Virus genome (UHGV): UHGV-0326994
Length of the DNA stretch: 64,000 nucleotides
From: a virus
Reading direction: 5' to 3' (one strand)
The notes below the pieces were generated by a model. It had not been told where the DNA came from. It made no database searches and saw only the letters and a program-made list of their open reading frames with translations. The translations under genes were made by a program, and so were the position numbers. Positions 26,594-28,414 of this stretch are shown one piece after another. Positions within the stretch are counted from its first letter, which is position 1, and each line of letters begins with the position of its first letter.

Positions 26594-26672
26594 TGGTACT
26601 CCATATCGGATTCGAACCGATACATAACACAGATTTTAAGTCTGGCCTCTCTGCCAATTGGAGTAATGGAGC
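26594..26672 (-). tRNA. tRNA with Leu-type anticodon UAA but class-I length (tentative)
   Basis: 79 nt; acceptor and T-arm good, CCA encoded, discriminator A; D-loop CAATTGGCAGA; 4 bp anticodon stem with loop CTTAAAA. Confidence 0.45.
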
Positions 26673-26674
26673 AT

Positions 26675-26750
26675 TGGCGGGGGATGTTGGAATTGAACCA
26701 ACTTCTTCGATTTCAAAGACCGAGGTTTTAACCTTGTAAACTAATCCCCT
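26675..26750 (-). tRNA. tRNA-Gln (anticodon UUG)
   Basis: Anticodon stem-loop TCGGT CTTTGAA ATCGA; A1-C72 mismatch; CCA encoded. Confidence 0.6.
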
Positions 26751-26758
26751 TTAAATCT

Positions 26759-27316
26759 TTACTTTCTTAGTGGATGAATAAAGAATGCCAACATAACTCT
26801 TTCCCTTGAGAATGCTCTTTCTTCTGGGACAACACTTTTAAGTTTCCATCCAACATAAATTCTCCAGTAGAATTGTTTACCAAAGATTTTAATTGACGGG
26901 ATAAAAGCGAATAAACCCCAAGCATTACTGTTCCACATTAGGAGATAACCTGTCTGATTATCTTCAGGGTTAGAACTTACGTTGATATTACCTTTCCACT
27001 TAGTAACATCTTTTACATCTCTTCCTAACACATGGTAAGAGAAGTTATAAGCTTTGTTTCTCCAGAGCCATCCAACTCTCTGCATGTAAACACCGAGCTT
27101 ACCAATCTTTCTAATCTTAGCCCATCGTTTGATATGACCTGCATCACCATCAATTGGGTTGTCATATGTCTCCATCCATCTGAAACCAAAAGGTAGATGG
27201 CCTTTCTTCTCACTGTAAAATGGGACTACGAAAGGTGCTAAGATAACTGCTAAGATTGCTGCAAATGGCTCTAACAAAGCTAAGAAAATCCATGAAGCAT
27301 ACTTAAAATATCTCAT
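26759..27316 (-). CDS. membrane protein embedded in tRNA array
   Basis: 185 aa; N-terminal hydrophobic segment WIFLALLEPFAAILAVILAPFVV. Confidence 0.4.
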   Translation of the reverse strand: MRYFKYASWIFLALLEPFAAILAVILAPFVVPFYSEKKGHLPFGFRWMETYDNPIDGDAGHIKRWAKIRKIGKLGVYMQRVGWLWRNKAYNFSYHVLGRDVKDVTKWKGNINVSSNPEDNQTGYLLMWNSNAWGLFAFIPSIKIFGKQFYWRIYVGWKLKSVVPEERAFSRERVMLAFFIHPLRK

Positions 27317-27555
27317 TGTCTAATCCTAGTAAGGAGGTAAACATTATTATCTGTTTCTGAGTTTTCTGGTAAAGCTGTCTCAAAATTGACGCTTTTAAAT
27401 TGTCTCCCACCAAAGTAATGACCAATAAATTTTTGTACTTTTATTGGGTCACATTCCCAGCCGACTTTCAAGAAAATGTGGGTATCTATAGTGGGAACCC
27501 TTACAAACTCAATGCTATTGGAATTTTCATGTTCAACGACTATTAACGTTTGCAT
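27313..27555 (-). CDS. hypothetical protein
   Basis: 80 aa ORF overlapping previous stop (ATGA). Confidence 0.35.
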   Translation of the reverse strand: MQTLIVVEHENSNSIEFVRVPTIDTHIFLKVGWECDPIKVQKFIGHYFGGRQFKSVNFETALPENSETDNNVYLLTRIRQ

Positions 27556-27573
27556 AAACCCCTCTTACTTGTC

Positions 27574-27649
27574 TGGCGCAGGATAAGGGATTCGAACCCC
27601 TATTAACAGCTTCGTAGACTGTTGCTCTATCCATTTGAACTAATCCTGC
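27574..27649 (-). tRNA. tRNA-Arg (anticodon ACG)
   Basis: Acceptor GCAGGAT/ATCCTGC; anticodon loop CTACGAA; CCA encoded. Confidence 0.75.
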
Positions 27650-27757
27650 TTACCTACGAGAACACCATACAGTTTTTCACAAACTTTGTTTTTACGTCTG
27701 TTTAGGTATGACGCTCTAAACTTTTTTGCGATGGACTTATTACTCATAGTGCTCTCC

Positions 27758-27835
27758 TAAAAAATTGGTGTTCCAAGACGGATTCGAACCGTCACTAGTA
27801 CAAGGTTTGAGCTTGCATCCTCTGCCAATTGGGAT
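27758..27835 (-). tRNA. tRNA with Leu anticodon CAA, class-I length
   Basis: 78 nt; D-arm TCC CAATTGGCAGA GGA; anticodon stem-loop GCAAG CTCAAAC CTTGT; discriminator A; CCA encoded; only ~6 nt variable loop. Confidence 0.55.
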
Positions 27836-27836
27836 A

Positions 27837-27911
27837 CTGGAACATGGTACTCACTAAAGGACTTGAACCTTTTTCTTCATCTTGTAAGGGTGGTGTTTTA
27901 CCATATAAACT
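27837..27911 (-). tRNA. tRNA-like gene, possible anticodon UAC (Val), weak anticodon stem
   Basis: Good acceptor (ACTCGCT/AGTGAGT), T-arm and CCA, but the anticodon stem pairs at only 3 of 5 positions. Confidence 0.4.
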
Positions 27912-28007
27912 AAGCGAGTGTGAAAGAGGTCTGAAGTTGTGCCACTAACTCAACTCCGTGGAATTTGTTACGGTCTTCAGTTGACTCAAAGTGGTCTTTC
28001 ACTTGAC

Positions 28008-28083
28008 CTCTGAATTGGTGCTCCCACAAGGATTCGAACCCTGATAAGTTGCTTACAAGGCAACCGTAATAGCCAATTATACG
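28008..28083 (-). tRNA. tRNA-Thr (anticodon UGU)
   Basis: Anticodon stem-loop GTTGC CTTGTAA GCAAC; CCA encoded. Confidence 0.7.
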
Positions 28084-28090
28084 ATAGGAG

Positions 28091-28165
28091 CATTAATTTG
28101 GAGCATCCAGAGGGAATCGAACCCTCAACCTCAGTTTGGAAGACTGTAATTTTCCCGTTTAAACT
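28091..28165 (-). tRNA. tRNA-Gly (anticodon UCC)
   Basis: Acceptor GCATCCA/TGGATGC; anticodon loop CTTCCAA; CCA encoded. Confidence 0.7.
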
Positions 28166-28171
28166 ATGGAT

Positions 28172-28247
28172 GCACTAATTGGTGGAGTCACTGAGAATTG
28201 AACTCAGTTCCCAAGTTTGCAAAACTCGAATTTTAACCATATAAACT
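28172..28247 (-). tRNA. tRNA-Ala (anticodon UGC)
   Basis: Acceptor GGGGTCA with G3-U70 pair typical of tRNA-Ala; anticodon loop TTTGCAA; CCA encoded. Confidence 0.7.
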
Positions 28248-28253
28248 ATGACC

Positions 28254-28329
28254 CCAATATTTGGTACAGGTGGAGGGAATTGAACCCATCGTCTTACTGA
28301 TTAAGAGTCAGCCGCATAACCATTTTGCT
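28254..28329 (-). tRNA. tRNA-Lys (anticodon CUU), tentative
   Basis: Anticodon stem-loop GCTGA CTCTTAA TCAGT; T-stem only 3 bp; paralogous to the 29972-30047 tRNA. Confidence 0.5.
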
Positions 28330-28336
28330 ACACCTG

Positions 28337-28414
28337 CATTAATTTGGTAGGAGACAAGGGATTCGAACCCTCAAACACCAACTTCTAAGGATGGTAGGTT
28401 TACCAATTACCGTC
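28337..28414 (-). tRNA. tRNA with Leu anticodon UAG, class-I length
   Basis: 78 nt; D-loop TAATTGGTAAA; anticodon stem-loop CCATC CTTAGAA GTTGG; discriminator A; CCA encoded. Confidence 0.5.

Follow-up and report, generated by a model that had tools for sequence, protein, structure and literature searches.

Type I leucine tRNA genes with short variable loops in the tRNA array of a Felix O1-like phage, and their relatives in other phages and in bacteria

The nearest described counterpart of the genes reported here belongs to Streptomyces coelicolor, where one type I tRNA-Leu(CAA), which has a short variable loop where the long arm would be, exists beside four type II isoacceptors and a single leucyl-tRNA synthetase (LeuRS) leucylates both kinds (Fan et al. 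2019, PMC6614811). Activity in that system required a variable loop that was 5 nt long or more and contained nucleotide 48, and the cognate LeuRS has a leucine-specific domain adapted to type I substrates. The exception was termed rare and the S. coelicolor enzyme (ScoLeuRS) the only prokaryotic LeuRS charging both types, and the paper makes no mention of phages. Here we examine three tRNA genes with leucine anticodons and short variable loops in the virus genome UHGV-0326994, using a stretch of 64,000 nt (hereafter the window), and compare them with their relatives in phages and in bacteria.

For the Escherichia coli enzyme, the identity set given by Giege and Eriani 2023 consists of A73, A15:U48, G18G19, A20a and the tertiary pairs between the D and T arms. 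The same authors report that the sequence and folding of the long arm are uncorrelated with leucylation and that armless variants are still active. The introduction of Fan et al. 2019 (PMC6614811) likewise describes the long arm as dispensable for E. coli LeuRS and an arm-less minimal tRNA-Leu as active. According to the summary in Giege and Eriani 2023, armless E. coli tRNA-Leu constructs are charged by E. coli LeuRS if A73 and the D/T core are intact (Larkin et al. 2002; Asahara et al. 1993, 1998; Tocchini-Valentini et al. 2000).

Three type I leucine tRNA genes in a phage array

Three tRNA genes with leucine anticodons, all on the minus strand, were called in the window by ARAGORN: tRNA-Leu(UAA) at 26594..26672, which is 79 nt long including an encoded CCA, and tRNA-Leu(CAA) at 27766..27843 and tRNA-Leu(UAG) at 28345..28422, each 78 nt long including CCA. 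Infernal searches with the Rfam tRNA model (RF00005) returned all three above the gathering score of 29, with 47.5, 43.6 and 40.0 bits, respectively, and the genes were also parsed into their cloverleaf segments. Each has what characterizes a type I tRNA-Leu, namely a leucine anticodon and a variable loop of about 5 nt, and at least 5 nt, in an otherwise standard bacterial cloverleaf. None of them has a variable arm of more than 10 nt forming a hairpin, as class II tRNAs do. The genes of the window are type I tRNA-Leu genes, a known but under-appreciated kind, and the genes themselves are already annotated in close relatives.

A sequence-only reading of the window had already singled out these genes, while doubting its own hand folding. 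The doubt was unfounded, save for an 8-nt slip in two sets of coordinates and for the D arm of the UAG gene. The anticodons UAA, CAA and UAG, A73, total lengths of 78-79 nt and variable loops of 5-7 nt were confirmed by ARAGORN, Infernal and the segment parse. The position 26594-26672 was exact, whereas 27758-27835 and 28337-28414 were each 8 nt too low and overlap the genes as called by about 70 nt. Run on the array, ARAGORN called three leucine tRNAs with the same anticodons, neither it nor Infernal gave any other anticodon, and no automated method produced a long arm, which is absent from the ViennaRNA minimum-energy folds of the three sequences as well. The comparison with host tRNA-Leu also held, with E. 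coli leuZ, leuX and leuW being 87, 85 and 85 nt long and having variable regions of 13-15 nt. Within the array, Ser(GCU), Ser(UGA) and Tyr(GUA) do indeed keep long arms, the segment parse having given variable regions of about 19-21 nt for the Ser tRNAs and of 15 nt for the Tyr tRNA.

The segment parse and the ARAGORN drawings agree on the anatomy of the UAA and CAA genes, each of which has a 7-bp acceptor stem, a 2-nt connector UA, a 3-bp D stem with the 11-nt D loop CAAUUGGCAGA, a 5-bp anticodon stem with a 7-nt anticodon loop, a 5-bp T stem with the T loop UUCGAAU, A73 and an encoded CCA. The UAA gene has G1.U72, C2-G71, U8, A9, the D stem CUC/GAG, the anticodon loop CUUAAAA and a 7-nt variable loop (GUUAUGU) that ends in U48. 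The CAA gene has G1-C72, U8, A9, the D stem UCC/GGA, the anticodon loop CUCAAAC and a 6-nt variable loop (ACUAGU), likewise ending in U48. The UAG gene has G1.U72, U8, G9, the anticodon loop CUUAGAA with A37 instead of G37, and a 5-nt variable loop (UGUUU). All three share A73, the encoded CCA, U8, A14/A15, G18G19 and U48; their anticodon loops have the canonical 7 nt and U33, the elements G18G19 and UUCGAAU are likewise canonical throughout, and neither G3.U70 nor a long arm occurs in any of them.

A leucine-like D loop (AATTGG..AGA) on a 3-bp D stem had been ascribed to all three genes. This is accurate for the UAA and CAA genes but not for the UAG gene, whose loop is AAUUGGUAAA, not ending in ..AGA, and whose irregular D region ACGGUAAUUGGUAAACCU has one extra base (18 nt versus 17). 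ARAGORN places this base in the connector, with a slid 3-bp D stem, and Infernal shifts the acceptor register by one. The Infernal register, which starts one base later and has a U discriminator, was rejected and the ARAGORN register kept, because only in the latter does A73 directly precede the encoded CCA and does the homologue in phage BF23 match. The E. coli LeuRS identity set outside the arm is present in the UAA and CAA genes, and in the UAG gene too, there with the extra D-region base and the slid D stem.

Relatives among phages and bacteria

The window belongs to Felixounavirus, the Felix O1-like phages of E. coli and Salmonella. Between its tRNA array and those of Felixounavirus genomes, among them Escherichia phage JN01, Salmonella phage Felix O1 and many more, the identity is 95-96%, and several of these genomes already have the three genes annotated as tRNA-Leu. 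In BLAST searches the UAA gene was at least 99% identical in 216 phage records and reached an Aeromonas phage and a Lactobacillus phage. The CAA gene is nearly identical in four other Felixounavirus genomes. Homologues of the UAG gene without length difference were found in T5-like phages including BF23 (83.8%), in Seunavirus (80.8%) and in a Xanthomonas phage. ARAGORN, run on the homologous loci, gave the same layout in each: the D stem is 3 bp long, its loop is of the AAUUGG type with 11 nt, the variable loop has 5 nt, and the discriminator is A73. The short leucine tRNAs called were UAG in BF23 and in Seunavirus NINP13076, UAG and UAA in Seunavirus KE23, CAA and UAA in Aeromonas phage Akh-2, UAG, UAA and CAA in Lactobacillus phage LpeD, and CAG in Xanthomonas phage X1. 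Long class II leucine tRNAs were called in T5 (UAG, 85 nt), NINP13076 (UAA, 86 nt) and X1 (UAG, 86 nt).

The LpeD locus (4367-5067; Herelleviridae, with a Gram-positive host) contains three unannotated type I leucine tRNAs. Their anticodons are the three of Felix O1 (UAG, UAA, CAA) and their D loop is likewise CAAUUGGCAGA. For the UAG and UAA genes of LpeD the 5' end given by ARAGORN is one base too early, the true acceptor stem starting with G1.U72 and the discriminator being A.

T5 and BF23 carry different tRNA-Leu(UAG) genes at one position, between tRNA-Ser2 and tRNA-Ala. That of T5 is type II and 85 nt long (retrieved locus 11625-11709), and that of BF23 is type I and 77 nt long (retrieved locus 3881-3957). 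The HNH endonuclease gene hegC lies immediately beside the T5 tRNA-Leu(UAG) gene and is not found there in BF23. This arrangement suggests that one allele was replaced by the other in connection with a homing endonuclease.

The Felix O1 genome paper took its tRNAs from tRNAscan-SE, discussed codon usage and listed Leu[TTA] among the tRNAs likely to help translation. The missing arm is not remarked on in that paper, in the paper on the tRNAs of phage Sf14 or in the database records examined. Our literature search returned no paper on arm-less leucine tRNAs in phages, but most subscription journals and the older T5/BF23 tRNA papers lay outside it, so that it is weak evidence of novelty.

A wider view was obtained by scanning IMG/VR for a leucine-type D loop (AATTGG required), a correctly spaced leucine anticodon and a T loop 16-42 nt away; A73 and U48 formed no part of the pattern. 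At least 120 loci were returned. The 120 loci among the matches listed contain 168 leucine tRNAs by ARAGORN, about a third of them at most 80 nt long; a short form is present in 37 of these loci and both kinds in 17. The loci among the matches listed span 29-62% G+C, and many kinds of phage are therefore involved. Together with the isolate phages they gave, after dereplication, 67 distinct short and 115 long leucine tRNAs, which were compared with 661 other class I tRNAs, the non-leucine tRNAs of the same loci. A73 is present in 67/67 short forms, 112/115 long forms and 59% of the other class I tRNAs, and U48 in 67/67, 113/115 and 37%, respectively. The two occur together in every short form (67/67) and in 18% of the comparison set. 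U8 was found in 67/67 short and 113/115 long forms, and a D region of 17 nt in 60/67 short forms, 97/115 long forms and 29% of the other class I tRNAs. The long forms thus resemble the short ones in these features except for the arm. The variable loop is exactly 5 nt in 57 of the 67 distinct short forms and shorter than 5 nt in none. The invariance of A73 and U48 in the short forms points to selection by LeuRS.

Loss of the arm is specific to leucine in the phage tRNA loci surveyed. Among the matches listed, the leucine tRNAs comprise 70 short and 112 long forms, while the serine tRNAs of the same loci comprise 2 dubious short and 67 long forms and the tyrosine tRNAs 3 short and 29 long forms. 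Type I forms amount to about 38% of the leucine tRNAs of the IMG/VR sample. The seryl-tRNA synthetase (SerRS) and the bacterial tyrosyl-tRNA synthetase use the long arm, whereas LeuRS does not. The arm would have been lost from leucine but not from serine or tyrosine tRNAs because LeuRS alone ignores it.

An alignment of 50 distinct short leucine tRNAs was scored against the type I cloverleaf. In total 97.2% of cells were paired and 20 of 20 pairs had changed on both sides, with 432 such cells in all, so that each of the four helices carries compensatory substitutions. None of 500 shuffles reached the observed values, and slid controls were at most 47% paired. Within Felixounavirus itself the whole anticodon stem of the UAG gene is swapped by compensatory changes: the window has CCAUC/GUUGG, while FO1a and EC6 have UCUCG/CGAGA, entirely different in sequence but likewise complementary. 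The short cloverleaf is not a chance occurrence.

These data bear on whether the genes might be decaying pseudogenes, that is, class II leucine genes from which the arm was deleted and which have gone out of use. Mismatches in two of the anticodon stems, the irregular D arm of the UAG gene and Rfam scores below those of most neighbouring tRNAs would agree with such decay, as would the tRNAscan-SE labels 'tRNA-Pseudo-TAG' for the homologue in the T5-like Yersinia phage phiR2-01 and 'tRNA-Pseudo-CAA' for the CAA gene of Akh-2. However, more than 200 genomes have a near-identical UAA gene, every helix shows compensatory changes, and A73 and U48 are invariant. In the 67 distinct short forms the variable loop never falls below 5 nt, which is the activity minimum in the S. 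coelicolor system, and the nearest relatives are short rather than long forms. Decay is brought close to exclusion by the conservation and covariation, and we consider it very improbable.

As to descent, the nearest relatives of each leucine gene of the window are other short forms (70-87% identity), while long ones reach 59-71%. The UAA and CAA genes have the D-arm subtype A9/C13/CAAUUGGCAGA, which is common to actinobacterial chromosomal type I genes and is not among the most frequent long viral subtypes. The UAG gene has the G9/G13 subtype of BF23. That each phage had recently and repeatedly lost the arm by deletion was considered less probable than that old type I lineages were inherited, because the nearest relatives are short genes and the short forms have D-arm subtypes of their own (e.g. 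A9/C13). The genes appear not to have been shortened in this phage, and would instead represent old lineages that circulate among phage arrays and are also present in bacterial chromosomes. Recent copying from host tRNA genes was also rejected: the CAA gene had no match in any complete E. coli genome by blastn (E up to 10), and this, with an identity of about 50% to leuZ, leuX and leuW outside the D arm, argues that the genes are not recent host copies.

Prokaryotic genomes were scanned with one genome per species for the short form only, again with the AATTGG D loop required, and at least 120 loci were found. ARAGORN confirmed at least 77 short leucine tRNAs holding the search pattern. At least 43 of those are solitary chromosomal genes, mostly Leu(UAA) or Leu(CAA) of Actinobacteria. 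The actinobacterial hosts among the matches listed include Nocardia, Mycobacterium, Gordonia, Rhodococcus, relatives of Arthrobacter, and Bifidobacterium, with genes nearly identical across genera. These solitary type I genes (UAA/CAA) have the D arm GCC-CAAUUGGCAGA-GGC and A73, and their variable loop has 5 nt, for example ACAGU. Other short leucine tRNAs among the matches listed lie in arrays of 10-34 tRNAs per 8 kb (Acidobacteriota, cyanobacteria, Mycobacterium). Such dense cellular arrays look like those of phages and may be carried by prophages or mobile elements. A paper on a Mycobacterium tuberculosis toxin states that only three of the five tRNA-Leu of that species have a long variable loop. 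The actinobacterial spread is much wider than the 'some Streptomyces' of Fan et al. 2019, and relative to the literature examined the wide occurrence of type I tRNA-Leu in Actinobacteria may be new.

Probable charging by the host synthetase and use in translation

It is likely, judging from their sequences, that the three genes give rise to functional leucine-accepting type I tRNAs, in which a short variable loop replaces the long arm, and that these are leucylated by the host LeuRS and used in translation. They would be transcribed together with the rest of the phage tRNA array, and the encoded CCA and standard cloverleaf are consistent with processing by host enzymes. No LeuRS gene was found among the ORFs adjoining the array, and the host enzyme is of the E. 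coli type. Charging by the host LeuRS is likely because the known identity elements of the E. coli enzyme lie outside the arm and are kept. They comprise A73, the pair U8:A14, the Levitt pair A15:U48, a D loop of 11 nt that contains G18G19 and sits on a 3-bp stem, and a T loop that is intact. The leucylation of a type I tRNA-Leu by the S. coelicolor LeuRS provides a precedent. On the ribosome of the enterobacterial host the UAA tRNA would read UUA and UUG, the CAA tRNA UUG, and the UAG tRNA CUA and perhaps other CUN codons.

The codon usage of the phage agrees with such a role. In 42 ORFs of the window the shares among leucine codons are 27.9% TTA, 12.9% TTG, 10.8% CTA and 13.2% CTG, and the corresponding E. 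coli values are about 13%, 13%, 4% and 50%. The AT-rich phage uses the codons read by these tRNAs far more than the host, and the anticodons match codons that the phage uses more than the host, as expected of codon compensation.

The sequence-only reading had offered two interpretations. The first, that the phage carries minimised leucine tRNAs, holds insofar as the tRNAs are armless leucine tRNAs with the leucine-type D arm, A73 and U48 kept, but they are neither minimised in this phage nor peculiar to it. The second, that they form a different or non-canonical isoacceptor family, found no support. In the study of Sf14 (2025), the tRNAscan-SE isotype models scored leucine highest for each of the homologous genes, with 67.4 for TAG, 49.1 for CAA and 60.2 for TAA.

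Several points weigh against leucylation and use in translation. E. coli LeuRS (EcLeuRS) failed to charge the S. coelicolor tRNA-Leu(CAA) in vitro and was said to charge only type II tRNA-Leu (Fan et al. 2019, PMC6614811). The leucine score of the Sf14 UAG homologue, 67.4, is barely above those for Ile2 (65.7) and Lys (63.4). The anticodon stems contain a C27.U43 mismatch in the UAA gene and a U.U mismatch in the UAG gene, and the UAG gene also has the irregular, 18-nt D region described above. Single-sequence minimum-energy folding with ViennaRNA did not give the cloverleaf, which lay 1.4-4 kcal/mol above the minimum. In favour of working leucine tRNAs, GenBank annotations describe the tRNA-Leu(UAG) of both T5 and BF23 as convertible into amber suppressors, the wording for BF23 tRNAL1 (AJ604530), which would act so in E. 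coli, being 'replacement of the anticodon with CUA converts this tRNA into effective amber suppressor'. This note is, however, silent on the amino acid inserted, and tRNAs with amber anticodons can be mischarged.

Of these points, the ViennaRNA folds were not accepted as an argument against the RNAs being tRNAs, because the comparative data are decisive and computed folds of unmodified, AT-rich tRNAs are often wrong. The failure of EcLeuRS may be explained by position 48, since the S. coelicolor tRNA has C48, while all phage forms have U48, with which A15 pairs in the identity set of the E. coli enzyme.

The same observations could be read to mean that the tRNAs are not leucine acceptors in enterobacteria at all, but are charged by another synthetase, as missense tRNAs, or remain uncharged and serve as decoys, as punctuation in array processing or as regulators. 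The EcLeuRS result and the closeness of the Ile2 and Lys isotype scores to that of leucine would suit this explanation, and T5-like arrays do hold tRNA-like stable RNAs of no assigned function, just as the window contains degenerate tRNA-like elements. Yet the leucine determinants outside the arm are all kept and are invariant in the 67 distinct viral homologues, which is hard to explain without selection by LeuRS. The alanyl-tRNA synthetase (AlaRS) needs G3.U70 and SerRS needs the long arm. AlaRS and SerRS, which are blind to the anticodon, are excluded because there is no G3.U70 and no long arm, and the anticodon-reading enzymes because they need different anticodons. The canonical 7-nt anticodon loops with U33, the match of the anticodons to codons over-used by the phage, and the annotation of the BF23 homologue as a suppressor, hence as working in translation, speak against uncharged or miscoding RNAs as well. 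We regard a role other than leucine acceptance as quite unlikely, and infer leucylation by the enterobacterial LeuRS and ribosomal use.

A separate matter is why the tRNAs are short. Genome economy was set aside as the cause, because only about 30 nt would be saved in a genome of about 88 kb, and to that extent an adaptive explanation gains. Short loops might allow decoding to continue when a defence system, a toxin or a phage-induced nuclease attacks host tRNA-Leu through its long arm or class II shape, with the phage tRNAs still being leucylated, in parallel to phage tRNAs that evade anticodon nucleases by changes in the loop. [quoted passage not shown] The UAG tRNA differs from leuW at three anticodon-loop positions, including A37 for G37, a pattern tied elsewhere to nuclease evasion, and at a single locus of T5-like phages either a type I or a type II allele is found, beside a homing endonuclease gene in T5. 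Set against this, no enterobacterial nuclease or toxin specific for the tRNA-Leu arm was found here, and we know of none. The same architecture is moreover that of ordinary solitary genes in actinobacterial chromosomes, and it therefore needs no arms race. Many phages also carry long leucine tRNAs or both kinds (17/120 IMG/VR loci among the matches listed have both). An adaptive origin of the shortness is thus unlikely, though less so than either pseudogene decay or a non-leucine role.

Equally doubtful is a composite proposal that goes further: that the enterobacterial LeuRS charges natural type I tRNA-Leu with U48 as the decisive feature, that the armless forms are an adaptation against arm-recognising factors, and that type I and type II alleles are swapped at fixed loci by homing endonucleases, as between BF23 and T5.

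The distribution suggests that the exception is much wider than published, extending to phage arrays (about a third of the leucine tRNAs among the matches listed), the Felix O1 group (all three), T5-like coliphages and many actinobacterial chromosomes. Relative to the literature examined, it may be new that type I leucine tRNAs appear common in phage arrays, including those of coliphages whose host LeuRS reportedly rejects a type I substrate. For coliphages this raises the question of how E. coli LeuRS acts on a natural type I tRNA-Leu and whether U48 is the switch. Annotation pipelines sometimes label type I leucine genes as pseudogenes. If they work in E. coli, these compact natural leucine tRNAs could serve as scaffolds for suppressor or genetic-code engineering. 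The general view of how phage tRNAs work is unchanged by the finding.

The surrounding array and comparison with known systems

The three leucine genes lie in a tRNA array at 25399..31165, in which ARAGORN called 25 tRNAs. All of these are encoded on the minus strand, and between them lie small ORFs and a gene for an HNH endonuclease (29002-29394). The tRNA-Ser(GCU) at 25479-25571 (minus strand) has U73 before its encoded CCA, where E. coli tRNA-Ser has G73. The tRNA-Ser(UGA) at 28679-28768 has G73, but CC and then T where CCA is expected, and every other tRNA that ARAGORN called in the array encodes its CCA in full. Of the two Met(CAU) genes, the one at 30836-30912 (minus strand) has positions 1 and 72 unpaired (U1 opposite C72), which is reminiscent of a bacterial initiator tRNA; it is without the three G-C pairs in the anticodon stem and has the lowest tRNAscan-SE score of the Felix O1 table (28.9).

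Three further elements, on the minus strand, resemble tRNAs. The one at 29368-29446 overlaps the start of the HNH endonuclease ORF (29002-29394), scores 31.7 bits with the Rfam tRNA model and was not called by ARAGORN. Inspected by eye, it shows an acceptor stem of 7 bp that contains G3.U70, the end A73-CCA, a good T arm and, as anticodon stem-loop, one with CUUCUAA (UCU, Arg), but its D arm is almost absent and about 23 nt separate the anticodon and T stems. It occupies the position of the tRNA-Arg(UCU) of phage Sf14 and may be a rearranged or degenerate arginine tRNA beside a homing endonuclease gene. The element at 28788-28862 is a weak match, with 23 bits to the tRNA-Sec model and no ARAGORN call. 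Inspection by eye shows an acceptor-like stem of 7 perfect base pairs and a stem-loop containing CUCCAAA (anticodon CCA, Trp) that is closed by a C.A mismatch, whereas a clean CCA end is missing. T5 and BF23 have an unusual annotated tRNA-Trp of 71 nt, and the element may be an aberrant tRNA-Trp of that sort. Between the tRNAs for Lys(UUU) and Asp, a partial match of 22 bits at 30255-30305, covering model positions 7-64, is probably a tRNA remnant.

Among the known systems, the annotated tRNA-Leu genes of Felix O1 (AF320576 / NC_005282) are the same genes as those of the window. The BF23 tRNAL1 (AJ604530) has a type I layout like that of the UAG tRNA of the window, but with a regular 17-nt D region and G1-C72, whereas the window gene has the extra D-region base and G1.U72. 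The host genes leuZ, leuX and leuW and the T5 tRNAL1 share with the window A73, U8, A14, A15, G18G19, a 3-bp D stem carrying a D loop of 11 nt, the three anticodons, and U48, with which the variable region ends in host and phage tRNAs alike. The D region of the host genes is 17 nt long and laid out like that of the phage tRNAs. These host and T5 tRNAs differ in having variable regions of 13-15 nt that form a hairpin. Outside the D arm, leuZ, leuX and leuW are about 50% identical to the window genes (22-31/52 positions). Position 37 is A in the UAG tRNA of the window and G in leuW, where it is the m1G37 site.

The S. coelicolor tRNA-Leu(CAA) resembles the tRNAs of the window in its leucine anticodon, its short variable loop (5 nt there), its standard D/T elbow and U8:A14, and it coexists with long-armed class II tRNAs. 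However, position 48 is C there and U in the window. The genes of the window are also phage-borne (in Enterobacteria), have variable loops of 6 and 7 nt in two cases and encode their CCA, and all three leucine tRNAs of the array are type I, against one of five in S. coelicolor. Animal mitochondrial tRNA-Leu, such as human mt-tRNA-Leu(UUR), is degenerate and floppy and has a dedicated mitochondrial LeuRS. The tRNAs of the window, by comparison, have canonical GG and UUCGAAU elbows, not the reduced or non-canonical D and T loops of the mitochondrial type, and would depend on a bacterial rather than an organellar LeuRS. The engineered minimal tRNA-Leu are laboratory constructs derived from host sequences, and the features that they require are those kept in the genes of the window.

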